Below are positions 49,386 through 63,993 of a stretch of DNA of 64,000 nucleotides, piece after piece. Where the stretch lies: the NCBI GenBank assembly GCA_963819655.1, contig CAWFXA010000002.1:672001-736000 (forward strand). Reading direction: 5' to 3'. The stretch's first letter is position 1; each line of letters starts with the position of its first letter. A program made the position numbers and the translations under genes. Origin of the DNA: an uncultured Chloroflexia bacterium. GTDB lineage: Bacteria; Chloroflexota; Limnocylindria; Limnocylindrales; CSP1-4. The notes beneath the pieces are model-generated. The model was not told the DNA's origin and made no database searches. It worked only from the letters and a program-made list of their open reading frames with translations.

Positions 49386-49869
49386 GTGAGTCGGATTGTG
49401 AGCCGTGCAACCAGATCGCTCCCGGCTCCGATATGGGAACGCTACTTGTGTTCCACCTGTTCCAGCCAGCGGAGGCGCTCATCGACCACGCGGGACGGGT
49501 ATCGCTCCGATGCTCGTAGGCGTCGCAATCGCCTCGTGGAGACGTCCCTTCTGTCCTGGACGGCTACACCTACGAGTGCCCTCACGGCGACGTGTCTTGG
49601 CGAGCAACAAGGGCGCCTGAGGCGTACCCAGGCGATCGAGTGGTCACCTTCGGCGTCCGACTCTCGAGCACCTGCTGTATCGAAAACAGCACGGCTTGAA
49701 AGCTTGGAGCAGCTTCGCCTAGGTCTTGAGACCTATCCAGAGCGGTGTGTGCGGCCCGCTGGAAAACGCTCAGTTAGCAGGTCTTCGAGCGTTGTGGCAA
49801 CCCCGCTCGGGCCTCTAATCGCCTCCGGGAGACAGTTTGCTGTTCTTCCTGAGCACGAAAAGAGGGGAG

Positions 49870-49914
49870 TGGAGCCGACACTCGGATTTGAACCGAGGAC
49901 CTGCTGTTTACGAA
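49870..49914 (-). pseudogene. 3' half of tRNA-Thr(CGT); att junction of an integrated element
   Basis: Minus strand reads TTCGTAA-ACAG-CAGGTC-CTCGG-TTCAAAT-CCGAG-TGTCGGC-TCCA (anticodon loop, T-arm, acceptor strand, CCA). No D-arm or 5' half follows. Confidence 0.88.
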
Positions 49915-50020
49915 TTCGGAGGGCCGGTGTCCGCTGATGACCTCTACCGGCCACCCACTCGGGAAACGCATGAGGCCATTCTGCTACTTGCTATACACGG
50001 CTACCCGAGTTCGCGGGCGT

Positions 50021-50043
50021 AGGGGTCAGCACAGGGGTCAGCA
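50021..50043 (+). repeat. Tandem 11-bp direct repeat AGGGGTCAGCA (putative integrase arm sites)
   Basis: Exact copies at 50021-50031 and 50033-50043, about 105 bp inside the att junction. Confidence 0.65.
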
Positions 50044-50165
50044 AAGCCCGGTTGACCTTGTCACGCCTTCTTAGCCTCGCGTAACGCGGTTCCTCGGCCT
50101 TGAGAAAGGCGACACTCGGCTTCGTGACGCCGAGTGCCGCCACTAAATCTCTGGCTGCGGCTCCC

Positions 50166-51402
50166 ATGGTCGCTTGGCGAAACCGGATCGTCGGCCACGC
50201 CGATGTGCCGCCGGCCGACCTGGTGCCCAACCCGCGCAACTGGCGAAGCCATCCGCCCGAGCAGCAGCGTGCGCTGGCCGGAGCCCTGGCCGAGGTCGGC
50301 TGGGTGGCCGAGGTGCTGGTCAACCGGACGACCGGCAACGTGGTAGACGGTCACCTGCGCATCGAGCTCGCCCTGGCCCGTGACGAGCCGACCGTGCCGG
50401 TCACGTACGTCGAGCTGACCGAGGACGAGGAGCGGCTGGTGCTCGCCAGCCTCGATCCGCTGGCGGCGATGGCGACCGCCGAGCAGGAGCAGCTCGCCGC
50501 GCTGCTGGCCGGGCTCGAGCCCGCCGACGCCGCGCTCGGGGCGCTACTCGAGGATCTCGCCAGCGAGTACGAGATAGAGTCAGATCCGGTCGGGACTCGT
50601 CGACCCGGACGATGCGCCACCGGTGCCGGATGAGCCGTACGTCGAGGCCGGGGATCTCTATGCCCTCGGCGAGCACCGCCTGTTGTGCGGCGACGCCACG
50701 AGTGCAGTCGATGTGAGCAGGCTCCTCGGCGACGACGAGCACGTTGACCTGATGTGGACCGATCCACCGTATGGCGTGGCCTACCAGACCAAGCTATCGG
50801 TCGAGGAGGCCGTCGCCCGTCACCGGCGGACGGACGGGCTGGAGGTCCCCAACGACCAGCCCGACGACATCCCGGCACTGCTTACGTCCGCCTTCGGCCT
50901 CGCCCCGCTGCGGCCGGGCGGCTCGTTCTATGTCGCCTCGCCTTCGAGCGGCGACGCGCTGCCCGCCTTCTACGCGGCTTTGGCTGCCGCTGACATGCCC
51001 GTCCGGGAACAGCTGATCTGGGTCAAGGATGTGTTCGTGATGGGCCGACACGACTACCACTACCGACACGAGCCGATCCTCTACGGCTGGAAGGAAGGCG
51101 CCGCCCATGCGTTCGCCGGTGGGCGTGACCAGGACACGGTGTGGGAGATCCCGCGACCACGGCGCTCCGAGGAGCACCCGGTGATGAAGCCCGTTGAACT
51201 CGTCGCTCGCGCCCTCGCCAATAGCAGCCGCACGGGCGACCTCGTGTACGAGCCGTTCGCCGGTTCGGGCAGCACGATCATCGCGGCGGAGCAGACCGGG
51301 CGGCGCTGCGTAGCGCTCGAGATCGATCCGCGCTACGCCCAGGTCGCCGTAGAGCGCTGGCAGGCGTTCACTGGGGACACGGCGGTCAAAGTCGATGGCT
51401 AG
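50166..51402 (+). CDS. ParB-N domain + N6/N4 DNA methyltransferase; apparent frameshift near 50590
   Basis: PNPRNWRSH, VDGHLR (ParB); HRLLCGDAT, TDPPYG, HPVMKP, EPFAGSGST. The linker GLVDPDDAPPVPDEP is in the second frame. Confidence 0.88.
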
Positions 51403-51459
51403 ACACGATCCTTCCATCGTGTCGCCCTACCATCGCCCACGCCGTACCGGAGCTAGCGC

Positions 51460-51861
51460 TTGGTAGGCCCGGCGTGCACGGCGCTGCGCAACGATGGCCG
51501 ACCATGTCGGGCGACGCCGATGCACGACGAACCGTTCTGCTTCTGGCACGCGCCGGAGACCGCCGAGGAGGCGGCCGAGGCGCGCCGGCTGGGCGGGCTG
51601 CACCGGCGCAAGAAGAAGTCGGTCGCCACGGTGTACGGCTTCGGCGGGCTGCGCACGATCGCCGACAACCAAGCCCTGCTCGAGACGGCGGCTATCGAGA
51701 CGCTGGCCATCGAGAACTCGATCTCGCGCAACCGGGCGCTGGCCTCGATGGCCGCCACCGGCGGCAAGCTCATCGAACTCGGCGACCTCGCCGAGCGCGT
51801 TGCCGCGCTGGAGGCGGCTGCCGCCCGCCCGATCCCGGCCGACGACCCGTTCATCGACTGA
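51460..51861 (+). CDS. Cys/His-motif protein (HGGxSTG-like / small terminase-like)
   Basis: C.A...DGRPC........FCFWH, ARRLGG, C-terminal DLAERVAALE coil. Confidence 0.6.
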   Translation: MVGPACTALRNDGRPCRATPMHDEPFCFWHAPETAEEAAEARRLGGLHRRKKKSVATVYGFGGLRTIADNQALLETAAIETLAIENSISRNRALASMAATGGKLIELGDLAERVAALEAAAARPIPADDPFID

Positions 51862-51862
51862 G

Positions 51863-52615
51863 GTGACCGTCGCCAGGCGGCTCGCCGCGTTGGAGGGCGA
51901 GCTCCATCCAACCCAGCGGGTGATGGCCTGGCTCGCCGAGGCACACGCGTACGACAGGTTCGAGGCGTACCTGAATGCGGTCATCGACGCCGATCCGTCG
52001 CAGCTGCCGATGGATCGGCTGCCCAGGGAGGCGGCTGAAGCGGCCCGTCGTCAGCGGAACGGCACGTCAACTGACCGGGACGACATCGTCCACCGAGCCA
52101 TCCGCGATGTGGTCCTGCGCGTGCACCTCGTGCTGCGCATCGTCGACCTGACCGACTCCGTGATGCGACGCGAGGAGCTGGTCGTTGCGCTGCTGTCGGC
52201 GCACGTGTCGCTCACGTTGGCCAGCCAGAACGAGCCCGCCGGCTGCCTGTCGCTCGTCCAGCTTCGTGATCTCCTCCTCGGCCGGGTCGCCGAGCTGCTG
52301 GCCCAGGAGGAGGCCCGCAAACTCGTCGAGACTCGCTACCTCGGCGGACATGCGTCGATCTACCCGGCTACCATGCGTCGCTGGCAAGAGCTGATCCACG
52401 AGGCCCAGGAGGCGGCGGTGATGACCCTCCGGCTGGCCGAGCTCGACGGCGCCGAGCCGATCAATGAGGAGCGCCAGCTGGTCCCTGACCCGGCACGCAT
52501 CGAGGCGATCGCCGCCGACTTCGTCGAGGTCGCCCGAATCAAGACCCTCGACGACGTGGGCGAAGGGTATGCCGCCGTCGCTCGGCTTAGGCGCTGGCTC
52601 GCAAGCTCCGCGTAG
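51863..52615 (+). CDS. Hypothetical helical protein of the element
   Basis: Coupled to the upstream gene; starts MTVARRLAALE. Confidence 0.65.
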   Translation: MTVARRLAALEGELHPTQRVMAWLAEAHAYDRFEAYLNAVIDADPSQLPMDRLPREAAEAARRQRNGTSTDRDDIVHRAIRDVVLRVHLVLRIVDLTDSVMRREELVVALLSAHVSLTLASQNEPAGCLSLVQLRDLLLGRVAELLAQEEARKLVETRYLGGHASIYPATMRRWQELIHEAQEAAVMTLRLAELDGAEPINEERQLVPDPARIEAIAADFVEVARIKTLDDVGEGYAAVARLRRWLASSA

Positions 52616-53277: not shown

Positions 53278-53387
53278 CGCCGCTTTAGGACACCGTTCGT
53301 CCGGCTAGGAACGAGCTCCGGAAGCCATGGAGTCCCGTGAGCCCTGGATCGTGGGCGAGCGTCCCCGGATGCCACTCCCGCTCCTCC

Positions 53388-54143
53388 TCACAAACCCGGC
53401 CCCTCCCACCTGGCCTGCAACCACCTCGGGCTTCCGAAATGCCCCTCGATCAAGTTCTCGAGCCCCGGCGGGCCTTCATATCGGATGACGACGACGTTAT
53501 CGAGTTCCGCGATAACCGGGTCGACGAAGCGCGCGCCGGTCGACTCGATCCAGGCTTGCTCGGCCTTCACCTGTTCGAGGAAACCTTCGAGCTCCTTCAG
53601 GCTCCAGGTCGCTTGGCGGACTTCGACCGGCCCATCGAGCGGGAGTGCCACTAGTGCCGCCCGATGTCGCTCAAGGTTCGCCTTGAACTCGACCACGGCG
53701 CCCGATGCCTTCTGATTGATGTACGCCGTTGCGAAGTCGTCCGGGAACTCCTCCCCGTACGTGCGGAGCTGCACGATCAGGCTGTTCGGCCAGCGACGCG
53801 ACATGAGATCGGCCAGTTCGTCGGGCATGAACGGGATGCCATATTGCTCGGGGACTAGCGCGGCCGGGTCGTCGGCCACGGCTCGGACCCATGCCTCGTC
53901 GGCTCGCAGGCCATACTGCTCTCTTATCTCGATCGCCTCGGCGATGTCGGCCTCGAGAATCGCCGTCGGCGTCGGCTGCATGGTCGGAGTCGTCGCGGTG
54001 TCAGCGGCTGGCGAGGCCGGAGCATCTACGCAGGCGCTCGACACAGCGACCACGGCAAGCGAGAGAGCCGCGGCTGTAAGAGCAAAGCGATGCGATCGGA
54101 CCATCGAATCGTGAGATGTCGCCAGTGGTTGGATCCGCATCAT
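53388..54143 (-). CDS. Cassette 1: hypothetical lipoprotein
   Basis: Signal peptide with SSAC lipobox; fills the interval between sites 53352 and 54184. Confidence 0.7.
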   Translation of the reverse strand: MMRIQPLATSHDSMVRSHRFALTAAALSLAVVAVSSACVDAPASPAADTATTPTMQPTPTAILEADIAEAIEIREQYGLRADEAWVRAVADDPAALVPEQYGIPFMPDELADLMSRRWPNSLIVQLRTYGEEFPDDFATAYINQKASGAVVEFKANLERHRAALVALPLDGPVEVRQATWSLKELEGFLEQVKAEQAWIESTGARFVDPVIAELDNVVVIRYEGPPGLENLIEGHFGSPRWLQARWEGPGL

Positions 54144-54252
54144 TCTCGCCTTGTCCGTGCTAGCACGGTACGGCGCCGTGCCTTGCCAAAAGGTCCGGGA
54201 ATGTCACCCGCTCAGCGATAGGCAGGGACCTACCACCAGGATGGGTCGATGC

Positions 54253-54861
54253 CTACCCATTTCGTGGTCGAACGCCAGTCCTTGCGTATGCGAGAAGACC
54301 GCCGAGAAGTCCCGCAAGAACTGCGGGGAATGTGACCCAAGACACCTCAGGGTTGGCGTCGGGCGGTGTCGTCGATGTGTCAGGCGGCCGTAGGCGGAAG
54401 AGTGCAAAGACCTCCGGCTCCGAGATGCGCTCGGCAAACGGAAAGGGCGGCCCGTCGATCCATGCCGCGGTATTTATCCGCTGCCCGAAGGCCGATATTC
54501 CGAGCGCGAGCGCGATCCGATCCCCTTTACGCGCCATGAGGATGTGGTCGGAGCATTCGAGGTATGCAAGGTCCCGAAGTGTCATGGTGCTCTCGAAAGG
54601 GCCCCGGACCGCGTGTTGAACACGTAGGGTGAAACGGCTGAAGGCACCCTGTTCGTCCCGCCATGGGGACCCGGCGTCGACTGCAGTGACTCTGCCGATG
54701 ACGACCCTATCCGCTGACGTCGCATGCTCACGGAACGACGGCACCGGGCCATCGCATTCAGCCAGCACGCCGGGCGCCGATAGGAGCGCGGCTGCCAGGG
54801 CCAGGGTTGCCGCGGTGCCGAGCGGGACGATCGATCGTGACCGCGGCATCCGGGGGGGCAT
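54253..54861 (-). CDS. Cassette 2: secreted/anchored protein (TIMP/NTR-like start AEC..P)
   Basis: Signal peptide, ADRVVIGRV, C-terminal TM with basic tail. Confidence 0.65.
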   Translation of the reverse strand: MPPRMPRSRSIVPLGTAATLALAAALLSAPGVLAECDGPVPSFREHATSADRVVIGRVTAVDAGSPWRDEQGAFSRFTLRVQHAVRGPFESTMTLRDLAYLECSDHILMARKGDRIALALGISAFGQRINTAAWIDGPPFPFAERISEPEVFALFRLRPPDTSTTPPDANPEVSWVTFPAVLAGLLGGLLAYARTGVRPRNG

Positions 54862-55049
54862 CGCACGGTTCCACAAACTTCGAATCGGCGATTCGAACGC
54901 GGGACTTTGCCGTCCCGTATCGGCGCTGCATGACACGACGTCTCGGCGGCGCTCGGTGTGTCAGGGTGCAGTGTTGACTCAGTGTCCGCCAATGTCACCT
55001 GGGCGATGGGGCCGACTCCGACCAGCGACGTCCGCTGGAAGTGTCTCAG

Positions 55050-55319
55050 TCAGTTTGAGTCGGATTCCCGTTTCGCGATGATCCGAGCCCGGAGGGCTCG
55101 CGCCTCCTCAGGCATGGGAGTCAGAGGGGCGCCGACCGCGAGCCACTGGAGAAAGACTTCACCGCAGGACTCGCAATCGAGCACCGCTTCGCATTTGACG
55201 CCTGGATAGGGCGATACGGCGGATGCGTATAGCAATTCACCAGGCCGCATTGGATTCCCGCTGTTTGGACAACTCCTGGGGCGCGGGACTCCGCTCTCTG
55301 TATCGTCCATCAACGGCAA
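55050..55319 (-). CDS. Cassette 3: small Cys-containing hypothetical protein
   Basis: CPNS...C...CESC; fills the interval between sites 54975 and 55349. Confidence 0.5.
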   Translation of the reverse strand: MPLMDDTESGVPRPRSCPNSGNPMRPGELLYASAVSPYPGVKCEAVLDCESCGEVFLQWLAVGAPLTPMPEEARALRARIIAKRESDSN

Positions 55320-55395
55320 GTCAACGAGCGGGCGACAGCCCGTCGGTGTGGCTCAGTGTTCGGGAATGTCACCTGGATGGTTAGTCCCTGGTCCG

Positions 55396-56013
55396 CTAGG
55401 GCGTGAGGGATGGCAGCCTAAACGGAGGATCCGGCGCCATCGATGGATTCGGGTTGAAGCCCTCCTGTCCCGTCTCGGCGTTGGGACCGCCATAGCCCTC
55501 CGGGGCGAACGTCCAATGTTGGCCACCGATCACGACGCACACGGGGTTGTCCGCCCAATACCCGGCGTAGTCGATCCGCCCGGCAAGCTGCACGACCCAG
55601 GCAGGGGCGTCCGTTAGGAGCTCGGGCTCGGTCCCGAACATTCGCGCATAGCGCGGGACGTCGCGAGCGCGAGCGACCAGACCCATCCCCACGACGCTGT
55701 CGAGGCGGGGCGGTCTATCAACACCGCATGCCTTGAGCGCAGCGGCTGCCGCAGGATCGGGATGCGATCTCGAAACGGGCTCGATCGTCCCATCGATCGG
55801 AGCACTCGCTAGTGGCCGGACGGGTGGCGGCGTCGCGGAACCCGAAGCTCCAGGATCGTCGGTGGCGACCGCCTGCGATGCCGTGATCGACGCCGGTGAA
55901 GTCGATGCCACGTCACCCGAATCGACTGTCGTCGGACTTGTTCCTTCGAAAGGACCGGAGCAGCCGAAAACCGCAAGGGCAACCAGGACCGCAGCACCCC
56001 TTCGAACGATCAT
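55396..56013 (-). CDS. Cassette 4: hypothetical lipoprotein
   Basis: Lipobox VFGC, S/T/P-rich linker; TACGAT upstream. Confidence 0.72.
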   Translation of the reverse strand: MIVRRGAAVLVALAVFGCSGPFEGTSPTTVDSGDVASTSPASITASQAVATDDPGASGSATPPPVRPLASAPIDGTIEPVSRSHPDPAAAAALKACGVDRPPRLDSVVGMGLVARARDVPRYARMFGTEPELLTDAPAWVVQLAGRIDYAGYWADNPVCVVIGGQHWTFAPEGYGGPNAETGQEGFNPNPSMAPDPPFRLPSLTP

Positions 56014-56091
56014 CCGGTCACCATCGTACCGGCGTTACAGGGCGTATCTAGACGGCCTGTTGGCTTAGTGTCCGGGAATGTCACCTCGTCA

Positions 56092-56502
56092 CTAGGCGAG
56101 AAGGACAAGCACCCGCGTCACATGGTCGACGGTGAACTTCGGATCGGCAAGCTCGAATACCAGCTTCGTCAACAACTCCACGGCGCTCGCGTACGCGGCC
56201 GAATCACTGCGTAGCAACCGCCCCGAATCCGGCCACACGATTGCGACCTTCTCCGTGTGCAGCTCGTGGAGACCCTCCCAGAGGGAGTCGCGTAAGGCGT
56301 CCCAGATGCCTCGATGGACGGGCGGGTCCAGCGGGAGCACCTGACGCACGGACCCGACGAAAGTGTCCCAGCTGTCGGGGGCCCCGGGAAGCGTGTACAC
56401 GGGCCAACCGTCCCGCGTCAAAGCCGCGACCAAGTCGGGTAGGGACACGCCTGTGCGTTCGTGGACACCGTACGCCGGGATAAGGAGGTCTCGTTCATCC
56501 AC
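56092..56502 (-). CDS. Cassette 5: barstar-family (RNase inhibitor) protein
   Basis: F...V...LPLDPP....WDALRDSLWEGL......VAIVW barstar-like signature. Confidence 0.8.
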   Translation of the reverse strand: MDERDLLIPAYGVHERTGVSLPDLVAALTRDGWPVYTLPGAPDSWDTFVGSVRQVLPLDPPVHRGIWDALRDSLWEGLHELHTEKVAIVWPDSGRLLRSDSAAYASAVELLTKLVFELADPKFTVDHVTRVLVLLA

Positions 56503-56547
56503 CTGGCCAAAGTACAGCCCGGACGGTTGGCTTAGTGTCCGGGAATG

Positions 56548-56946
56548 TCACCCCGGAGAGGTTGCGGAAACGGCATCGATCAGGGCCGGTCGGCATCGTG
56601 CGATGAAGCCCTCGACCCTAGCCGCAGCTACGTCCGCATCGGCGAGCATTTTGAGCTGGTCGGACCGCGAGATGCCTGTCTCCTCGGCGATGAACGCGCC
56701 CTCAGGGCCGGTCGCATCAATGGTCCAATTCGGTTCAGGGTCGAGCTTGAGGGCGACGTCGACCACCAGAAGCTCGCCCATCGGCGCGGCTGGGTCGACG
56801 AAGACGAGCAACAAAGTGAGCGCGTAAACGCGGGAGGGCTTCTCCTCGATGTGAGAGTGGATTTTCGGTCGGGCCGTGCTGATGGATACGGCTGTGGCCT
56901 CGAGGACCGCTCGAATCCTGCTTCGATGGTGATCGAGGCTCGTCAC
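56548..56946 (-). CDS. Cassette 6: hypothetical protein
   Basis: GTG 6 nt after TATCGT; the TGA stop lies inside site 56528-56552. Confidence 0.62.
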   Translation of the reverse strand: MTSLDHHRSRIRAVLEATAVSISTARPKIHSHIEEKPSRVYALTLLLVFVDPAAPMGELLVVDVALKLDPEPNWTIDATGPEGAFIAEETGISRSDQLKMLADADVAAARVEGFIARCRPALIDAVSATSPG

Positions 56947-57045
56947 GGGCTCACGATACAGGCCGTCGTCGTGGCAAAGTGTCCGGGAATGACACTTGAG
57001 GGCATGCGACTTCGGTTGCACCACGCGTAGCACTACGCTTAGCGC

Positions 57046-57324
57046 ATGGATGGAAGCCTGCAGTACAGATTGGGCGACCGAGTAATAGTCCGGCGCGATC
57101 GAGAGTTCGGACTTGGACCGTGGCCATCTGAGCCAAGCGGCACCATCGGGGAGCCCCCGGACTCGACAAATGCGCGGATCTGGCGACGGACGAAGACGAC
57201 CTCCGGGTGGCGGCGCTCTTACTGGATTCTGTTCGACGAGCCTCAGATCGATGCTGAAGGCGATGGGCCGTATGAGATGTCCGAGGTGCTTGACCTGTAC
57301 CTCGAGCGGGAACCCAGCGACTGA
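57046..57324 (+). CDS. Cassette 7 (inverted): small SH3-like hypothetical protein
   Basis: YRLGDRVIV...GTI...YWILFDEPQIDAEGDGPY; TACGCT 6 nt before the ATG. Confidence 0.72.
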   Translation: MDGSLQYRLGDRVIVRRDREFGLGPWPSEPSGTIGEPPDSTNARIWRRTKTTSGWRRSYWILFDEPQIDAEGDGPYEMSEVLDLYLEREPSD

Positions 57325-57391
57325 CTACAGCACTTAGCCATGGCTTAGTGTCCGGGAATGTCACCTGAACCTTCCACCGGGAGAGTCCCCA

Positions 57392-58117
57392 TCAGAAGGC
57401 TTGGCATTCTCCTACCCAGACGCGCTCCCCATCCACGGTTCCGACTCCCACATGAACGACCCCCGAGTCCCACAGGTTCAGACCGACACGCTCCTCGCTG
57501 TCGATCTGGAAGCAGTACACCGGCGAGGCCGGGTGCTGGTTGTAGGGGGCCCAGAAGATTTCGCCCTGGACCAGGCGCGGCCAACCGCCGAGCTTGGTCC
57601 CGCTCGTCGCACTCCCGATGACCTCGTGCGCATCGCGGCTTCCGAGGAGACCTTGGAGGCTATCGAAGTCGACGGTGGCGACCAGATCGTCCCAGTCCGG
57701 GTAGTCCTCGACTACCTCCCAGTCGAGCTGCCTCGGCCGGATGCCATCGATGACCCGACCGTCGACCGCGTGGAGTTCGTCGAGCGAGCGGTAGGCGCGA
57801 ACGGCCCAACCATCGCCGTTGGGACGGTCGTTAGGTCGGTCGAGGAACCCGTTGTCGTCGGCGATCCAGAACGAGACTAGGGCGAAGCCCGCCAGTTCCG
57901 GAGGCACGAACCTGGCTTCGGTCAGGTTAATCTGGGCGAGGGAGGCCATCGCCCGTCCCTCAACAGTTGGCCAGTCCTCACCGCGCCCGATGACCGAGAC
58001 GCGCCCGAGGCACGAGCGATAGGGATCGTCGCTGGGTCTCCCGATGACTACTCGTCCGACCGACGCCGGGCGCCTAATCGCGTTCCGGATCGCGTCGATC
58101 GAGTCGGGGACGAGCAT
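57392..58117 (-). CDS. Cassette 8: DUF1963/YwqG-family protein
   Basis: EDWP...G..M..LAQINL, TKLGGWP..VQ, FQIDSE.....LWDSG..H. Confidence 0.8.
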   Translation of the reverse strand: MLVPDSIDAIRNAIRRPASVGRVVIGRPSDDPYRSCLGRVSVIGRGEDWPTVEGRAMASLAQINLTEARFVPPELAGFALVSFWIADDNGFLDRPNDRPNGDGWAVRAYRSLDELHAVDGRVIDGIRPRQLDWEVVEDYPDWDDLVATVDFDSLQGLLGSRDAHEVIGSATSGTKLGGWPRLVQGEIFWAPYNQHPASPVYCFQIDSEERVGLNLWDSGVVHVGVGTVDGERVWVGECQAF

Positions 58118-58190
58118 CGATTGAGGGTAAGCGACCGTCGAGTGGCAAAGCGTTCGGGAATGTCACCAGAGATGGGACGAACGCTCAGGC

Positions 58191-58670
58191 CTAGAGCCTA
58201 GGGCCTTTGCCCCACTCCCAGTGAACGAGTCCGGCTATCGCGAGCCCGTCGATGATCCCCCAGAGTGGCTCGGGCACTTGGCCCTCGATGTCTATCGCGA
58301 CGAAGCCAGGCGATCGCCACTCATGTGGCCGATCGGAAGCCGCCAAAGCGCCGTGGAGCTCTTCGTGCCGATTCGGCTCAACGAACGCCACCCGCAATAC
58401 GAGTCGATCCGACGATTGGACGACGGGACCAAGCACCGAATCGAACCGGCCGGCAGCGCGTCGTAGACGGACGACGTCTCCTAGTGCATAGCCGTACGTG
58501 AAGAAAGGCAGGCAGCAAAGCTCGTACATACCTTCGCCCAGGTCGCGCGCCCACAGCTGCTCGTATCGGCCGGGAAAACCGTGGTCGGCGAGGTCAGCCT
58601 GCAGGATGGAATTCGCGCGGTCGCGCCAGACAGGAAGCTCATGCGTCGCGATCTCGTTGTCGCCTGCCAC
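58191..58670 (-). CDS. Cassette 9: DUF4265-family protein
   Basis: EQLWAR.LG.G.YELCCLPFFTYGYALGDVV. Confidence 0.82.
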   Translation of the reverse strand: MAGDNEIATHELPVWRDRANSILQADLADHGFPGRYEQLWARDLGEGMYELCCLPFFTYGYALGDVVRLRRAAGRFDSVLGPVVQSSDRLVLRVAFVEPNRHEELHGALAASDRPHEWRSPGFVAIDIEGQVPEPLWGIIDGLAIAGLVHWEWGKGPRL

Positions 58671-58804
58671 GTCTTGAGACTAAGGCAGGGACAGCCCTTC
58701 GCCATGGCAATGCGCGATGTCACTCGGACCGTGACACTACGAGCAAATCGCGCAGACCATTGCGGCACGCGTACTGATCTGACGATGGTTCACCTGCCTG
58801 CCCC

Positions 58805-59188
58805 CTATAGCTGTGGCTTGCCGCCGCACGCCGGAAGTTCCGCTTCCTGCACCGGCCCTTCGATGATTCGCGGAAGGGCGTCCCCGCTGATGACGAACGT
58901 CATCGGCCGCGGAGCCCCATTCCGAGGCCCAGGGATGCCCCTGGTGAGCACAACTGCGTCCGCCGGGACCCACGAGTAGTCGCCTTCCATCGCGAGCTTT
59001 AAGAACGCTTCCCCGGCCGCGTCCAGTTCAGCCTTAGTGAAGGCGGAAGCGGAACAGGGACCGAGCTGAACATCGGGGGCGAGTGCGATGGGCACGTCCG
59101 ACCGGTTGACCAGCACATAGTCCGGAGTGGCCGCACATCCTCCGGCGAAAAGGACGATGGCACCAATGGCGCGGACGGCGGTCATCAT
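58805..59188 (-). CDS. Hypothetical lipoprotein
   Basis: Lipobox AGGC, VLVNRSDVPI; follows degenerate site 58705. Confidence 0.6.
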   Translation of the reverse strand: MMTAVRAIGAIVLFAGGCAATPDYVLVNRSDVPIALAPDVQLGPCSASAFTKAELDAAGEAFLKLAMEGDYSWVPADAVVLTRGIPGPRNGAPRPMTFVISGDALPRIIEGPVQEAELPACGGKPQL

Positions 59189-59312
59189 GCCGCGAGTATG
59201 CGGCGAGGCACGAGCGCCTCGACGTGGATGGCCGGGTTCGTCAAAAGCGTGCCGAGGAAGCTCTCGGATCGCGAGGTATCCTGTTGTTCGTCGGGGCCGT
59301 GATCGGGGTGGT

Positions 59313-59534
59313 GTGGCTGGTCCGCAAGCAACGGATGCGGCGTTGAGCTGGCTGTTAGTTCTCCTGCCCGCGTCCGGCGTCCTCATCGGCACCCTCATCG
59401 GATCCATGCGTCGAGGCGACCCTCCTACAGAGGTTCGCCGCCGCCTTGTGGAGGCCGCCGTCGGGGGTCTAATCGCGGTCGTGATCATCGTGGCCGTCAT
59501 CACCATTGCGGGCGGTCGGCTGGTCTGGCCGTAG
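59313..59534 (+). CDS. Small two-TM protein
   Basis: Two hydrophobic helices; start uncertain. Confidence 0.4.
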   Translation: MAGPQATDAALSWLLVLLPASGVLIGTLIGSMRRGDPPTEVRRRLVEAAVGGLIAVVIIVAVITIAGGRLVWP

Positions 59535-59598
59535 TCCTCGTTTCGCATCCTGAAACTGACCCACTACCGGATCAGCCGGACAAAGCAGAAAACTGATT

Positions 59599-60576
59599 GT
59601 GGGCTGCGGCCGAGGGGAGACGCCTGTGGTGACGAACTACATCAGCGAAGAGCTCGGTCGGTTGATCTCGGCCGAGGGCGAACTCGTCGTTGGAACCCAC
59701 ATGAGCCCGCCGCGAGTAATCGGAGATTTAGATCCGCAACGCCCCCAAGACGCGTTCCGGATTGAGTGGGAGATCGCCGCCAGAGGATTAAGGGTGCTTG
59801 TGACCAGATCCGGCGGCCTGTTCGTGCGCCCTCCCGAGAACCTCGTGTCCTCGGGCTTCGAAGGGTTCGACGAGAAGTTCGCGTTCATGTCGGAAGCTGC
59901 GGCAGCAATCAATGTGGTCTTGTGTGAAGCGGCATTGACGGGCGCCGTGTCTAGCCCAGCGTCGCCAGTCCAGATGAGCAGCGGCAAGGTCGTCGATGAT
60001 CACGCGATCATCACCGGAGGCGGAGGCGGCCGCGAGGTCTATCTCGACAGAACCGCTGACATTTTGCTCGACGTGATCGGACTCAAGTGGATGACCTGGG
60101 TGCATGTCGAGCCAGCGTTGTTCGACATCGTGGCGTCTCTGCCGCGAGCACCTCGCCTCTTGGCCATGGCCTCGGCTCTGCCCGAGCTCGTTGTCGGAGC
60201 TTATTCGAACCTGTCACGCCACCACGCCCCAGAGGCAATCGTTGACGGTTGGGTGGTGATCGAGCAGTTGCTCGATGTGATGTGGCAGGAATTTGTCGCG
60301 GGCGTCAGCGAGCCGGGGCGAGCCGAGATCCTCAAGGACACGAGGTCCTTCACGGCTGCGGTCCGCGCCGACGTTCTGCTTACCGCGGGGAAGATCAGCC
60401 CCGATCTGTGGCGAAAGGTGACTAGGGCGCGGAAGTACCGGAACGAGCTGGCACACCGCGCCAGGGTGTCGATTGGCGCCGCCCAATCGGTCTGCTCCGC
60501 AATGCAAAGCACCGTTGAGCGAATCTTGGGGACCACGGTCGATCCGCCCCTCTATATGAGGCATCTGACGTGGTGA
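59599..60576 (+). CDS. Putative HEPN-domain protein
   Basis: W.VIEQLL helix and C-terminal RKYRNELAH (Rx4H); atypical codon usage. Confidence 0.6.
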   Translation: MGCGRGETPVVTNYISEELGRLISAEGELVVGTHMSPPRVIGDLDPQRPQDAFRIEWEIAARGLRVLVTRSGGLFVRPPENLVSSGFEGFDEKFAFMSEAAAAINVVLCEAALTGAVSSPASPVQMSSGKVVDDHAIITGGGGGREVYLDRTADILLDVIGLKWMTWVHVEPALFDIVASLPRAPRLLAMASALPELVVGAYSNLSRHHAPEAIVDGWVVIEQLLDVMWQEFVAGVSEPGRAEILKDTRSFTAAVRADVLLTAGKISPDLWRKVTRARKYRNELAHRARVSIGAAQSVCSAMQSTVERILGTTVDPPLYMRHLTW

Positions 60577-60953
60577 ACCAGGGCCCGCAAGCGTCGGGGG
60601 TGAGCTAGGCCCTGGGAGCCACCCGACGTTCCGGATCACTGGCGAACACGCCCGACCCGCCGTTCCTGGTCCGATCTCGGCAGCTCCTCCGTGACCGTCC
60701 TGGGATCTGGTCACTTGCGCCGGGTGTTGCCCTCCCGAGGTGATTAACCCACCGACACTATGAGCGGGAATTGGATTGGTGATCACCAGCCGACGACGAC
60801 TTTCGTACAACCTGGTACGCCTCAGGAGCTCTATCCTCACTGCCAGGTTTGCAGCAACAACCAGGGCCTTGAGGCAATCAATCTATTGAGGCGGGGGGAG
60901 AACCCGTACCCGTAACGCTGAGGGAACCGCGGCCAAGAATGGAAGAGGCGAGC

Positions 60954-61343
60954 ATGGAGACCGGCTTTCCCTGGGGAATCCTGCTGGTCTCAGACTCCAC
61001 ATCGAAGGAGCAGATACCTCCCTGGGAGTCCGAGGATCACCAGGTAGCGGTAAGCGGGTCGGCTCTGGTACTTCGCGTTCGTCATGAGCAAGAAGGCCCC
61101 GTTCAAGTTCACCTGTGGGCCAACACCTCACCGGAAGCTGGAAGCCCAGTCTTTGTCGGTTCGTTGGATGTGCCGAGCGGGGTATTGACTGTTGGGGACG
61201 CGCTTGGGCGGAGGCAGGTGTCTGCGCGCGTTGACCCTGGCCCGACGAGAATACAAATCCGCGCCGATCGTCCTCGCGAGCCTACGCGAGTAGACGTAAT
61301 TGTTCCTGATCGCGCAGAACCGGGTCATGGAGGAGGCAGCTGA
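60954..61343 (+). CDS. Hypothetical beta-rich protein (immunity-protein-like)
   Basis: VRHEQEGPVQV...GSLDVPSGVLTVGD; AT-richer codons. Confidence 0.6.
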   Translation: METGFPWGILLVSDSTSKEQIPPWESEDHQVAVSGSALVLRVRHEQEGPVQVHLWANTSPEAGSPVFVGSLDVPSGVLTVGDALGRRQVSARVDPGPTRIQIRADRPREPTRVDVIVPDRAEPGHGGGS

Positions 61344-61390
61344 AGACGATCCCGGCATCGTGTTGCTTTTGGCCGCGACCTGAGTGACTG

Positions 61391-61427
61391 ATGGCGGCGT
61401 CCAATCCGCTTACGGAGACGCCGCCAT
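61391..61427 (+). promoter_or_regulatory. Hairpin covering the RBS and start codon of the recombinase
   Basis: ATGGCGGCGTC (61391-61401) pairs with GACGCCGCCAT (61417-61427); an inner TCCG/CGGA stem includes GGAG. Confidence 0.6.
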
Positions 61428-62358
61428 GACTCCCCACTACCTCCCGGCCACCGCTTCGGACGACGTCCCTGGCTGGCAGCGAACGGTTCTCGCATTCCTG
61501 AGCGAAAAGGAACGCCGATCGGGCTCCCGGCGGACGATCGAGAGCTACGCTCGGATGCTCTGGCCGTTCCTCACGAGGGTGGGTGCGCCAAATCTGGTGA
61601 CGGCCGCCCACGTCCTGGCCTGGGCATATGGAGTGGGGGCGTCGGGGCGCGAACCGTCTTCCGCGACCGTCGGGGCACGAATCGCCTGCCTATCCTCCTA
61701 TTACCGGTTCCTGATCCGGATGAACGTGACGACCTCGAACCCGTGCGACGCGCTCGAGCGCCCGCGCACGACGCAGGCCGTGGCGCGGGGGCTGAGCGCG
61801 GAAGAGGTCCGTCGCCTGCTGGCGGTCGTGCCCGATACCGTGGCCGGCCGACGCGACCGGGCGCTACTGCTGTTCTTCGTCCTCACCGGTCGGCGCCGAT
61901 CGGAGGTCATCGGCCTGACCGCCGGCGACATCAGCGTCGAGGGGGACACCGCCTTCTACTCATACCGCGGCAAGGGGGGCAAGCGCGGCCGCCGTGAGCT
62001 TCCGCGGCCGGCATTCGAGGCGCTTTGTGTGACGTTATCGGACGCGAGTCTCTCCTTGGCCGAAATGGAGCCGGCGGCGTCGCTCTGGCAGGCGGCAGCG
62101 GGAGAGCGCGGCATCACCAGCTCCACCTTCTACAACCGGTTTCGACGCTACCTCCGGGCAGCGGACCTCGCTCCTACCGGGTTGCACATCCTCCGCCACA
62201 GCGCCGCGAAGCTGCGGCGTGATGCCGGGGCGTCGATCGAGTCAGTGAGCAGCTTTCTGGACCACAGCTCGCTCGCCGTCACAAGCGTCTACCTGCGGAG
62301 GCTCGAGGGCGAGGCGGATCGAACATGGCCGGACGTGGCGGTCGCGATCGGCGTCTGA
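61426..62358 (+). CDS. Tyrosine recombinase/integrase (XerC/D-like size)
   Basis: Core-binding N-terminus (SRRTIESY, LSSYYRFL, NP); catalytic R (TGRRRSE), K (GKGGK), HILRH, LDH, Y (TSVY). Confidence 0.93.
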   Translation: MTPHYLPATASDDVPGWQRTVLAFLSEKERRSGSRRTIESYARMLWPFLTRVGAPNLVTAAHVLAWAYGVGASGREPSSATVGARIACLSSYYRFLIRMNVTTSNPCDALERPRTTQAVARGLSAEEVRRLLAVVPDTVAGRRDRALLLFFVLTGRRRSEVIGLTAGDISVEGDTAFYSYRGKGGKRGRRELPRPAFEALCVTLSDASLSLAEMEPAASLWQAAAGERGITSSTFYNRFRRYLRAADLAPTGLHILRHSAAKLRRDAGASIESVSSFLDHSSLAVTSVYLRRLEGEADRTWPDVAVAIGV

Positions 62359-62391: not shown

Positions 62392-63993
62392 TCAAGACGG
62401 CCGTCTAGGGCTGACGATGTCGTCGCCGAAGATGCGCCACGCCTCCGCCATGAGGTCGATCTCCCCGGGATCCCTTCCGGTACGGCCATGGGGATCGCTG
62501 TCCCAGCTGTCCCCACCGTCCGGGCCGTCCGCGGGGTGGGACGGCGGGGACAGCGATTCCCGGATACGCACCAAGGAGATGATCCGGTCTGATCCATGGT
62601 GCGCTGGGAATCGAACGTCGATCTGTTCGACCTTGCGTAAGTCGGGTGCGAGCCGCCGCAACGCCGTGCCGAGCCCAGCCGCGTTCATCGGCCAATCCCG
62701 ACGCTTGCGGACGGACTCGTCGGCGTGCGGGTAGAGCGCCCGAAGCAACTGGGTGGCCGTACCGGACCAGCTATCACGGTCGCGCAGCAGCTCCACGATC
62801 GGCGCCGCCAGGGGACTCGCCTCGAGCGTCAGGGCATGGCTCTGCCTGCGATTGGTGCGATACGCGGCGACGAATGAGCCGGTCGGCCAACGGAGGGCGC
62901 CCTCGGCCGCGGTTACCCATCGTGTCGCATCGGCCATGCGCGGCAGGCGTCCGATCGCGACCTCCTCATGACGCGCGAACGACACGGAGACGGCGTCGAG
63001 CAACGCGCCCAGGATGGTAGGTCTGTCGGCCTCGAACGCGGGCCAGAACTCCTCCTCGGGACGACGGAGACGATCGGGGATGGTCGCGAGGTCGACGACG
63101 ATCGCCCGATCCATCAGGTCCGCCCGGGTGACGATGCCGCCGATCCCGTTCAGGATGACCGGTCGGGCGACATGGACCAGAAACTCCTCGTCGTCCGAAT
63201 ACAGCTGCCGCGTCGAGAAGCCCGCCCCGGTCGCCAGACGCGCGATCGCGTCGGACTGCCACGCGGCGAGGCTGGACACGTTGTCGAACGACGCGATCCA
63301 GCTGTTGCTGGCGGCGATCGCCAAGGAATGCTCGTCGCGGGGCTGACTCCGATCGCCGACCGCGTTGGGGTCGATGAGAAGTCGGAGCAGGCGTGCCGTC
63401 GTGCTCTTGGCGCTGTCCTGCTCGCCGCCGAGGAGGAGCACGATGTATGGGCCGCGCGGTCGGAACGCAGCCAACAGCCACCCGGCGAGGAGGCGGTACT
63501 GGTCGTCGTCCACGACATTGACGAAGGTCCGCAGCTCCTCGAGCGAGCCGCCCGCGCGGGGAGTCGGAAGGGCCTCGAGCCCGCGCGGCCGGCGGAAGGG
63601 GATCGGCGACCGGTCGAGGATGCGCCAGCCGGCGGTATCGATCTCGACGACCCGCCAGCGGTCATCACCGAGATCGAGGTACATCGCTCCGTGGTGCTCG
63701 GCGATCCTCAGGCCGACGCGACGATCGGGTCCATCGAAGTGGCCGATCGCGGCGAGGACGTCGGTCGCCTCGGTGAGCGCCTGGCCTCCCGCCGGTCGGC
63801 CAGTCGCTCGCCAGTGACAGCCCGACAGCCAGGTCCGGAACGCTCTCGATCGAACGCGAAGGACCTCGTGATGGGGCACCGGCTGCGTCGTCAGGACATC
63901 GGCGTACGCGGTGTCGCCATGGTGGAACAGTTCGCTCGCCTCCTGGGCGGCTAGCACGAGTTGAGCGGCCTGGGTCGCCATGCGCTCTGGCAT
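62392..63993 (-). CDS. Replication-associated ATPase/helicase-like protein of mobile elements (may be 5'-partial)
   Basis: YLDLGD..W..VEI...GW, Walker A GEQDSAKST, FDNVS, LATG....RQLYSD, PRMAD, W.GTAT.LL. Confidence 0.8.
   Translation of the reverse strand: MPERMATQAAQLVLAAQEASELFHHGDTAYADVLTTQPVPHHEVLRVRSRAFRTWLSGCHWRATGRPAGGQALTEATDVLAAIGHFDGPDRRVGLRIAEHHGAMYLDLGDDRWRVVEIDTAGWRILDRSPIPFRRPRGLEALPTPRAGGSLEELRTFVNVVDDDQYRLLAGWLLAAFRPRGPYIVLLLGGEQDSAKSTTARLLRLLIDPNAVGDRSQPRDEHSLAIAASNSWIASFDNVSSLAAWQSDAIARLATGAGFSTRQLYSDDEEFLVHVARPVILNGIGGIVTRADLMDRAIVVDLATIPDRLRRPEEEFWPAFEADRPTILGALLDAVSVSFARHEEVAIGRLPRMADATRWVTAAEGALRWPTGSFVAAYRTNRRQSHALTLEASPLAAPIVELLRDRDSWSGTATQLLRALYPHADESVRKRRDWPMNAAGLGTALRRLAPDLRKVEQIDVRFPAHHGSDRIISLVRIRESLSPPSHPADGPDGGDSWDSDPHGRTGRDPGEIDLMAEAWRIFGDDIVSPRRPS

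Follow-up and report, generated by a model that had tools for sequence, protein, structure and literature searches.

The array at positions 53352-58723 of the window (the whole 64,000-nt stretch of DNA that was analysed) is, in our judgement, rather likely to be a row of about nine single-gene cassettes joined at 24-25-nt sites that resemble half-sites of a large serine recombinase (LSR). Related soil bacteria commonly have arrays of this kind as well, so the row may represent integron-like gene capture of a new type. More tentatively, and with slightly less than even confidence, we propose a serine-integrase counterpart of the integron, in which one LSR clade, together with a rolling-circle Rep, would capture and shuffle promoter-bearing single-gene cassettes. 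Exchange would take place at GA/CA next to a 22-nt half-site, and the partner half would double as a leaderless promoter. Such a system would be spread over soil and freshwater Chloroflexota and Actinomycetota, would stock genes for immunity and small-molecule resistance, and would leave orphan arrays behind. Our comparisons show how the site is built, that it is confined to arrays, that homology breaks at it, that cassettes turn over between species, and that the LSR clade and the arrays are linked with a fixed polarity.

The array contains eight strong and two degenerate copies of the site, all in the same orientation. On the gene strand, the site consists of an outer motif (GTGWCATT), 5 nt, an inner motif (ACRC plus 5 nt) and a terminal dinucleotide, which is CA in the genome of the window and GA in most relatives. 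There is a long form of 24 nt and a short form of 19-20 nt, and both contain these two motifs. A repeat search recovered eight same-strand copies, starting at 54184, 54975, 55349, 56061, 56528, 56972, 57341 and 58143 and scoring 36-44 bits each against the PWM. The exact 25-mer occurs three times, plus once with two mismatches, where 100 shuffles gave an expectation of 0. All sites lie on the minus strand, and all eight strong ones end in CA. Sites 2 (54184-54208, junction dinucleotide CA at 54184-54185), 3 (54975-54999), 4 (55349-55373), 5 (56061-56085), 8 (57341-57365) and 9 (58143-58167) are of the long type. Site 5 has the same sequence as sites 6 (56528-56552) and 8; site 6 is followed by 13 nt, TACTTT, 6 nt and the GTG start of the next gene. 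In site 7 (56972-56996), the inner 7-7-7 palindrome is perfect. The sequence-only reading had described ten same-orientation copies 369-832 bp apart; all ten exist, but the first and the tenth are degenerate. Site 1 (53352-53376), at the array tail, is a degenerate long type with two mismatches in the outer motif that ends in CA, while site 10 (58705-58723) is a short type that also ends in CA and is 5 nt shorter, its two motifs having moved 5 nt towards each other. Start-to-start spacings from site 1 to site 10 are 832, 791, 374, 712, 467, 444, 369, 802 and 562 nt. An inverted CTCAC about 10 nt past site 1 may be what is left of a short-type partner half.

The site is confined to arrays. Across the whole 3.49-Mb genome of the window, only three places outside the array reach at least 18 bits (C3:189496, C1:421322 and C1:422041), and the reversed genome used as a control peaks at 14.3 bits. 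This PWM scan, which the sequence-only reading had recommended, places the site in arrays and not scattered genome-wide, which speaks against a field of operators and rules out REP/BIME repeats, whose many copies are dispersed over intergenic regions. CRISPR, in which short repeats alternate with non-coding spacers of about 30-40 nt, is ruled out by spacings of 369-832 nt with an ORF in every interval. Nor is this an array of integron attC sites, as only 24-25 nt are conserved and single-stranded DNA folds of five sites (z -0.4 to -1.6) have no common structure. The site had already been set apart from attC and CRISPR, and rightly so: it has no long foldable palindrome, and the intervals are long and coding.

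Related genomes carry similar arrays. PWM scans of same-genus genomes revealed same-strand arrays of 16, 10, 9, 6 and 5 sites, and arrays are also present in two other genera. The site family forms arrays in Chloroflexota relatives and some Actinomycetota MAGs, with up to 16 units that measure 0.3-1.5 kb and hold single genes. One relative, G030, has four arrays with 40 PWM-scored sites altogether. A degenerate pattern, allowing at most one mismatch, matches 318 of 401 family genomes; reversed controls gave 0-2 matches per genome.

Homology between cassettes begins and ends at the site. In G030, three paralogous cassettes are similar from one site to the next and dissimilar outside. A recent tandem duplication, 97.5% identical, repeats exactly a leader, a gene and a whole site; the junction falls outside the longest shared stretch, to the right of the final position at which the sites differ. 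Metagenome contigs carry the 53388-54143 gene of the window at about 93% identity, with homology stopping at 54185; contigs from runs X5 and X6 match the last cassette to this position (TG/CA of site 2) and then continue with a short-type half. A contig from run X1 has the 5' part of the 55396-56013 gene and site 5 beside a different upstream flank. The sharpest breaks map to the terminal CA/GA dinucleotide of the site.

Cassette content turns over between close relatives. At one locus, the species G380 and G331 have flanks, LSR and Rep in common at 84-89% identity, but of their arrays, with 5 and 8 sites, only the terminal site is shared. G030 and G026 are set apart by a 2.9-kb array insertion. 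Related elements therefore have no fixed gene order; this is the outcome of a cassette comparison such as the sequence-only reading had suggested. Its idea of a site-specific platform for gene capture or shuffling appears sound to the extent of a site-bounded cassette array, given that the breaks seen in paralogous cassettes, in the tandem duplication and in metagenome contigs fall at the site. The evidence for recombination is all comparative.

Arrays in relatives sit downstream of an LSR gene that is paired with a rolling-circle Rep gene. Proteins at the head of the array matched the Pfam families Resolvase, Recombinase and Zn_ribbon_recom in all three cases tested, and PDB sequence matches include the TP901-1 integrase and another integrase. 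We considered 18 LSR loci with an LSR identity of at least 44% and at least 3 kb of downstream sequence. Array sites occur downstream in 15 of them, and the 18 loci together have 69 sites on the LSR strand and one on the opposite strand, while 250 kb of upstream sequence has only two. LSRs with less than 44% identity gave counts of 5 and 6. Loci of the LSR clade that have arrays include Actinomycetota MAGs. Where LSR identity reaches at least 50%, 14 of 17 loci show an inverted long-type site immediately upstream of the LSR start; none of eight more distant LSR loci does. The LSR clade itself occurs in 23 of the 401 family genomes, vs site-like matches in 318; therefore, most arrays are orphans or use something else. 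We found no intact LSR in the 91% complete genome of the window, only residues 155-463 of a 5'-truncated copy beside a truncated Rep, so its array is probably an orphan, like an integron cassette cluster without an integrase.

Studied LSRs bind two half-sites, normally attP paired with attB. At the LSR start, two inverted half-sites are clear in 14 of 17 loci, and in relatives the LSR gene start lies within an inverted hybrid copy of the site. At internal array sites, the second half is weak (mean -41 at the expected register vs a background of about -46, with no strong copy), and an inverted outer motif at +8/+9 is seen in 11 of 208 units. The 168 long sites include 132 that end in GA, 15 in CA and nine in TC; the TC endings fall mostly on inverted LSR-proximal copies, as a shared asymmetric dinucleotide would predict. 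Integrase C-terminal domains are reported to contact a 25-bp attP half-site, and in attB the zinc-ribbon motif is shifted towards the centre by 5 bp (PMC3783163); the long and short forms seen here differ in like manner. The LSR TndX is reported to require a central GA in its target in every case (PMC4430133). We infer which form is P-type and which is B-type; since an X1 contig has a long-type site at the position of the window's short-type site 10, an attB origin of the short form is unproven. A search for an empty short-short site in relatives without the element found none. Overall, the site has the anatomy and genomic linkage of an LSR half-site, which suggests that the LSR is the enzyme.

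The repeat could instead be purely regulatory, as a shared operator or upstream promoter element co-regulating the genes of arrays that grew by ordinary duplication and illegitimate recombination, a reading that we consider unlikely. Of 69 units, 18 have TANNNT, 5-8 nt and an ATG or GTG, starting 11-14 nt after the site, and the TANNNT spacing peaks at 13 nt (14 units vs 0.05 expected). The site, counted from those start codons, covers about -50 to -26, holds an imperfect 7-7-7 palindrome, and is well conserved even in genomes without an intact LSR. This spacing is not obligatory, however, as 12 further units have the promoter pattern at 24-91 nt, and some intervals hold an opposite-strand gene with site orientation unchanged. 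Furthermore, homology blocks and the recent duplication stop at the final dinucleotide of the site, and regulation explains neither the strict downstream, same-strand linkage to one LSR clade nor why a short and a long form are paired where the LSR gene starts. Given the fixed 13-nt spacing to the -10 box, the site could also, or only, be regulatory, and it may have a dual role in regulation and recombination.

The Rep gene offers another candidate for the LSR's part. An HUH rolling-circle Rep might define the cassettes by nicking the outer motif and copying or releasing the segment up to the next site; a REP_ORF2-G2P gene lies beside the LSR in all eight annotated loci, and the complement of the outer motif may resemble 9-nt origins known from certain rolling-circle replicons. 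Such a role is improbable, because the mapped junctions are at CA/GA, 14 nt away from the outer motif, and five sites offered no conserved stable hairpin to present the motif (DNA-fold z -0.4 to -1.6).

The tyrosine recombinase next to the array is probably not the enzyme that acts on it. The sequence-only reading had pointed to a complete tyrosine recombinase 2.7 kb on; the gene is there, at 61384-62358 on the plus strand, 2.66 kb from site 10, and encodes a complete 324-aa protein of the Phage_integrase family (E 6e-20). In favour of a role as the cassette recombinase, the gene is divergent from the array in the window, and orthologues occur near arrays in G331 (77% identity; 5 sites, about 300 nt away) and G293 (71% identity; 3 sites, 4.5 kb away), in the same divergent arrangement in all three cases. 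The G293 locus also has homologues of the window's methylase module. These three adjacent cases nevertheless look like one mobile-element family. Of the 401 family genomes, 46 have orthologues (66-85% identity), in up to five copies and with unrelated flanks. Only one of 29 other loci has array sites within 1.5 kb, and one of 16 has them within 10 kb. None of the gene's four neighbours in the window recurs at the 30 orthologue loci searched (29 plus L047), and conservation at this locus ends about 60 nt 5' of the start and directly after the stop codon. Arrays also occur without an orthologue (G030, G026 and G251), and the only two tyrosine recombinases of G030 are both distant from its arrays. 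The proposed link between array and recombinase thus finds no support, and we regard it as improbable that this protein moves the cassettes.

A role of the host's XerC and XerD at the site, of the kind known from dif-like (pdif) modules, is very improbable: the two tyrosine recombinase matches of G030, taken as XerC and XerD, accompany many sites, and family-wide site conservation fits a core-genome enzyme, but the sole dif-like candidate found in the genome of the window (C3:558491) is unlike the site in length and arms, all sites are in direct orientation, and the linkage to the LSR clade is left unexplained. The dif and pdif sites are 28 nt long (11-6-11), pdif resembles the host dif, and pdif sites alternate in orientation.

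On the LSR reading, the recombinase would bind the site and cut at the terminal dinucleotide, so that a cassette could be excised as a circle and inserted at another site. The result would be cassette shuffling and capture, as in integrons. The DNA directly after each junction would be the decayed partner half-site, which would often still provide a TANNNT -10 box at a distance of 13 nt from the junction, followed after another 6-7 nt by a start codon. Cassettes would thereby bring their own leaderless-type promoter.

Integrons are the main known machine for filing single genes into expressed arrays; they depend on one tyrosine-recombinase family and have mostly been studied in Proteobacteria. 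Their attC sites are imperfect palindromes of about 60-140 nt that fold as single-stranded DNA and have RYYYAAC/GTTRRRY ends. The arrays described here resemble integrons in having mostly one-gene cassettes in one orientation, with a conserved site at the 3' end and crossover at one edge, and in rapid content turnover between relatives. Many arrays likewise lack a nearby recombinase, and cassette content is of a similar flavour (transferases, glyoxalase-like proteins and unknowns). They differ in being linked to a serine and not a tyrosine recombinase, in a site of 24-25 nt without RYYYAAC/GTTRRRY boxes, and in that many cassettes seem to carry their own promoter. Integrons have an IntI-type tyrosine recombinase at the array head, whereas the tyrosine recombinase that neighbours this array is unlinked to the arrays. 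If our proposal is true, a second, unrelated machine based on serine recombinases exists, and the filing of gene cassettes arose at least twice in evolution. This second machine would be at work in soil phyla that are abundant but poorly known, would explain how banks of immunity and resistance genes are assembled in these bacteria, and might also yield serine recombinases that follow unusual rules at their sites, with a single strong half-site and a choice of dinucleotide.

Other systems share part of this organization. SCC elements are moved by Ccr serine recombinases, and their composite islands are tandem elements split by repeated sites; the likeness lies in the serine recombinase and in the tandem elements separated by such sites. 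Tn5397/TndX is also an LSR mobile element with an asymmetric central GA and relaxed targets (PMC4430133). Both span many kb and have, or depend on, complete transfer or recombination modules, whereas the units here are single genes of 0.3-1.5 kb, with up to 16 in a row. The recombinase-associated acquired interbacterial defence system of Bacteroidales (rAID-1) is described as having, on the 5' side, an XerD-like recombinase whose identity to a B. fragilis reference exceeds 44%, with co-directional orphan immunity-type genes, skewed GC and repetitive intergenic sequences on mobile DNA (bioRxiv 10.1101/471110). Our array likewise has co-directional genes, skewed GC and a repeated intergenic motif. 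Compared with rAID-1 as reported there, the linked enzyme here is an LSR, most arrays have no adjacent tyrosine recombinase, and the hosts are Chloroflexota and Actinomycetota. Heterogeneous polyimmunity loci consist of tandem, unrelated immunity-type genes that vary between strains and sometimes lie beside recombinases; the excerpted description names neither a repeated site nor a serine recombinase (Zhang et al. 2012, PMC3482391), and only a minority of the cassettes here match immunity-type families.

One plausible ORF lies in each of the nine intervals in the window; eight of these ORFs are read from the minus strand and the ninth from the plus strand, just as the sequence-only reading had it. 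From the array tail, the minus-strand genes begin with 53388-54143 (251 aa), whose N-terminus looks by eye like a signal peptide or lipoprotein and which has no Pfam family. The gene at 54253-54936 (up to 227 aa) looks secreted, and its homologues are the final array genes in L032 and L036. No family was assigned to 55050-55319 (89 aa) or to 55396-56013 (205 aa), the latter lipoprotein-like by eye. The gene at 56092-56502 (136 aa) has a weak Barstar-like match (E 1e-4) that, at 22.7 bits, does not reach the cut-off of 23.4 bits. The 56548-56946 gene (132 aa from the GTG after site 7) stops at a TGA inside site 6. The plus-strand gene at 57046-57324 (92 aa) is followed by two minus-strand genes with family matches: DUF1963 (57392-58117, 241 aa, E 2.9e-8, above the cut-off) and DUF4265 (58191-58670, 159 aa, E 3.4e-18). 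Predicted functions among cassettes are immunity-like (in a minority only) and small-molecule-modifying. Families represented include nucleotidyl-, phospho- and acetyl-transferases and glyoxalase-like proteins, alongside many unknowns.

In this genome, the array is cargo of an integrative element of 16.85 kb inserted at tRNA-Thr. No tRNA genes were found within the window; the tRNA-Thr(CGT) gene lies 2.7 kb past its end, at window-equivalent positions 66679-66753 (ARAGORN). Its 3' 45-46 nt recur as a perfect second copy at 49869-49914 (blastn), and this 46-nt direct repeat marks the left border of the element. The earlier claim of a tRNA-integrated element is therefore correct. The GC content of the array is 63-66% vs about 69% for the genome, and a sub-threshold Rfam tRNA match lies at 49873-49951.

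Four lines of evidence, all from comparisons between organisms, indicate that the units of the array are gene cassettes. In genome G030, three paralogous cassettes in three arrays have a reverse-strand gene; they are 85-91% alike from site to site and unrelated outside. Other shared blocks begin 2-8 nt ahead of one site and stop 8-44 nt into the next. A recent duplication in locus L030, 97.5% identical, repeats a unit of leader, gene and whole site, and its middle site copies the downstream site through the last variable position. This places the exchange within the final GA or immediately beyond it, rather than in the 9-nt stretch common to both parental sites. Two relatives, G331 and G380, are 84-89% identical in their flanks and recombinase module, but their array interiors (eight versus five sites) share only the terminal site. 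Furthermore, two genes that adjoin in G026 are separated in G030 by an array of 2.9 kb; the array of G026 itself is found across the spermidine synthase gene speE. At L030:8078-9990, a cassette of 326 nt is a copy of the 1.56-kb unit next to it with the interior deleted; their first 48 and last 276 nt are identical.

The window itself contains ten sites on one strand, of which eight are strong. The 25-mer first noticed there has three exact copies and one with two mismatches, where none is expected (100 shuffles). A repeat search of the window recovered eight same-strand copies (54184, 54975, 55349, 56061, 56528, 56972, 57341 and 58143), which score 36-44 bits against a weight matrix built from those eight. 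The first and last of the ten copies originally claimed are real, albeit degenerate: the outer motif of copy 1 (53352-53375) is altered at two positions, and in copy 10 (58705-58723) both motifs are kept but stand 5 nt closer together. One plausible ORF was found in each interval, and the reported strand bias stands, with eight ORFs on the minus strand and one on the plus strand (57046-57324). A candidate tenth cassette gene lies at 58805-59190. On the gene strand, the site falls 0-50 nt past one stop codon and 25-47 nt ahead of the next start. The GC content of the array is 63-66%, versus approximately 69% for the genome.

As the fourth line, public metagenome sequencing runs contain related array sequence in other arrangements. 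Contigs from runs X5 and X6 are approximately 93% identical to the last cassette up to window position 54185 (the CA of site 2), beyond which they run into a short-type half-site. A contig from X1 joins the fourth cassette (55396-56013) and site 5 to a flank resembling window 58727-58757, and X3 contigs have the same site between other DNA. Eight runs hold 7-13% of the sampled words, and the gaps in array coverage in the four runs compared are uninformative.

The site does not correspond to other classes of repeat. The sole weak dif-like candidate, found with dif search patterns at C3:558491 of the window's genome (G000), is unlike the array site; this only match is a candidate chromosome dimer resolution site. 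No attC-like hairpin was seen; the sites folded as single-stranded DNA give no common stable hairpin. A REP-like or operator repeat dispersed through the genome is ruled out by a weight-matrix scan of all 3.49 Mb, since only three places outside the array reach at least 18 bits (C3:189496, C1:421322 and C1:422041); the reversed-genome control reached a maximum of 14.3 bits. No Rfam family was found at the sites; the one match, a tRNA fragment below threshold, lies at the border of the element.

The neighbouring tyrosine recombinase is not generally associated with arrays. A Phage_integrase-family gene does lie near the array (61384-62358), as the sequence-only reading stated, but the link that it drew between the two is not supported among relatives: sites lie within 1.5 kb in one of 29 other loci and within 10 kb in one of 16. 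Of 401 family genomes, 46 carry orthologues (66-85% identity), in up to five copies, and these genomes span 17 of 49 genera. The conserved stretch comprises the recombinase gene and approximately 60 nt upstream, and stops at the stop codon; the leader carries TGA in all three frames right before the start. A search beside 30 orthologue loci (L047 and 29 others) recovered none of the four window neighbours. G030 has four arrays but only two distant matches to this recombinase. The two array-positive orthologue loci, G331:C2 and G293:C7, have the divergent layout seen in the window, and the three look like one mobile-element family that carries both features. The 324-aa recombinase (window 61325-62358, loci L054-L082) behaves like a one-gene unit with every flank different, and may be a self-contained mobile gene.

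We propose instead that a large serine recombinase (LSR) acts on the arrays. Clustering of the proteins around arrays revealed two head-of-array genes in three genera: an LSR with Resolvase, Recombinase and Zn_ribbon_recom domains, and a rolling-circle Rep (REP_ORF2-G2P). PDB sequence matches of the LSR include TP901-1 integrase and back its assignment. Of the 17 loci whose LSR is at least 50% identical, 14 have an inverted long site directly upstream of the LSR start; none of eight more distant LSR loci does. This inverted site places a TAATGT 6-7 nt ahead of the start codon, and on its left side the motifs recur at the shorter spacing, in a copy that ends in GA. LSR and Rep are paired in all eight long-flank loci, seven of which have long sites downstream on the same strand as the LSR; the eighth runs to the contig end.

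A wider scan by LSR alignment, using one genome per species, returned 59 loci. Among the 18 with at least 44% identity and at least 3 kb downstream, approximately nine of which repeat loci examined earlier, 15 have a site downstream. Their downstream sites are almost all on the LSR strand (69, with one opposite), and two sites occur upstream in 250 kb. For LSRs below 44% identity, again with at least 3 kb downstream, the corresponding figures are 4 of 21 loci, five sites on the LSR strand and six opposite, and one upstream in 193 kb. The new loci in the more similar group include Actinomycetota and Acidimicrobiia MAGs. This LSR clade is rare (23 of 401 family genomes), and most site-bearing genomes are without it. 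At least eight site matches occur in 9 of 17 genomes with an LSR of at least 50% identity versus approximately 18 of 384 others, by a hand count that ignores kinship. G000, which is 91% complete, has no intact LSR; it retains only residues 155-463, 245 kb from the array. These belong to an LSR-Rep remnant (C2:977201-978724; Rep residues 113-262) with no array nearby. Directly ahead of the truncated LSR is a sequence resembling a short-type half-site.

The two forms of the site can be compared with serine-integrase half-sites. According to PMC3783163, the integrase C-terminal domains touch the whole 25-bp attP half-site, and the zinc-ribbon motif is 5 bp nearer the central dinucleotide in attB. 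The array site measures 24 nt in its long form (25 if a leading G is counted) and 19-20 nt in its short form, with the outer and inner motifs common to both. The last two bases at the right end are the most conserved positions; 168 long sites end in GA (132), CA (15), TC (9) or another dinucleotide (12). CA endings mark the G000, G024 and G293 lineages; TC endings are mostly inverted LSR-proximal copies. For TndX, another LSR, a central GA is always required in the target, according to PMC4430133. In internal array sites the second half is weak, and no strong second half-site was found in the array units. At the position of the window's short site 10, the X1 contig has a long site, and thus "attP-type" and "attB-type" are working names. 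To find empty sites, 41 genomes of G331's genus were searched for the gene that borders the LSR end, and 37 matched. Among 30 loci examined, those lacking the element show neither a short-short site nor adjacency to the other flank; in the G395 and G447 loci, a short-type half gives way to other DNA.

A promoter-like pattern follows many sites. We counted 69 units from G000 and same-genus arrays, and in 18 of them TANNNT, then 5-8 nt, then ATG or GTG starts 11-14 nt past the site (expected, 0.05), with a peak at 13 nt. Twelve further units have a TANNNT-start pattern 24-91 nt past the site. A consensus scan against shuffles found no canonical -35/-10 promoters in the array, so it is the TANNNT pattern that suggests a promoter; one intrinsic terminator was found, not above shuffles. 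The array -10 box, 13 nt from the junction, occupies the position that TAATGT holds in the inverted half-site where the LSR gene begins. Given this matching spacing, we interpret the DNA past each junction as a decayed partner half-site that doubles as a promoter. In the genera of G251 (L048-L053) and G331 (L042-L047), all three gene-strand frames of the site contain TGA, and any upstream reading frame would thus stop within it.

The array works like an integron array and like a rAID-1 array. Its site does not qualify as an integron site, and the recombinases that define integrons and rAID-1 are both absent. A full-text literature search of limited scope found no description of cassette arrays linked to a serine recombinase.

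Cassette contents are diverse, and the majority have no family. Window cassettes encode DUF1963 (E 3e-8), which we take to have an immunity role, and DUF4265 (E 3e-18); a third has a Barstar-like match just under the cut-off. The remaining six have no family, and two or three of their products look lipoprotein-like by eye. Among 54 same-genus array ORFs, a set that includes the flanking housekeeping gene speE, single matches were found to DUF6228, DUF4265, DUF4279, DUF7674, Imm26, DUF1963, DUF6869, HEAT_2, Glyoxalase_3 and an aminoglycoside-nucleotidyltransferase-like domain pair. NCBIfam added only speE and an aminoglycoside nucleotidyltransferase-like protein. The 45 ORFs of nine further arrays gave one match each to SMI1_KNR4 (SUKH), DUF4265, DUF6228, APH, GNAT, isochorismatase and AHSA1. 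Imm26 and SUKH are among the immunity families listed for heterogeneous polyimmunity loci in PMC3482391, a text in which we found no mention of DUF1963.

The array resides in a 16.85-kb element integrated at tRNA-Thr, in agreement with the earlier suggestion of a tRNA-integrated element. ARAGORN found no tRNA within the window; tRNA-Thr(CGT) lies 2.7 kb past its end (within G000:C2:735001-739000, L009), adjoining a second integrase of 419 aa. Window 49869-49914 is a perfect repeat of the 3' 45-46 nt of this tRNA, which therefore places the array inside the element. A second repeat of 21 nt, near both element ends (window 50021-50041), is possibly an arm-type site. Window 50100-52615 holds a three-gene module (177 aa, an N6/N4 DNA methylase and 373 aa). 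Homologues with 30-40% identity occur in G293 (L147:3182-5774), next to an orthologue of the recombinase and an array of the CA type; the order of the genes there is consistent with a circularly permuted version of the window's element. A 533-aa ORF (62392-63993), convergent to the tyrosine recombinase and single-copy in the genome, has a strong coding signal and no Pfam family. Within the 3' end of this minus-strand ORF is a 24-nt inverted repeat (62490-62561; 88% complementary, 24-nt loop), where Rfam gave only a meaningless sub-threshold miRNA match.

The site family is widespread among relatives, whose contigs are titled Chloroflexota (Candidatus Limnocylindria/-ales). A strict 19-mer with up to two mismatches occurs in 9 of 36 same-genus genomes and 0 of 24 sister-family genomes (reversed control, 0). 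A degenerate 17-mer with up to one mismatch occurs in 318 of 401 family genomes and 40 of 49 genera, an upper bound given that approximately 9 of 13 such matches in G000 are real sites (control, 0-2 matches per genome). These tallies take in four unpublished genomes (G409, G140, G250 and G257), which underlie none of the other claims. Loci of G030 and G026 contain same-strand arrays of 16, 10, 9, 6 and 5 sites, and arrays are also present in G331 and G251, from other genera. In G331:C2, the same four sites recur at 298-2833 and 381581-384117, each shifted by 381,283 nt, at opposite ends of a 388-kb contig; overlapping ends left by the assembly of a circular replicon could explain this.
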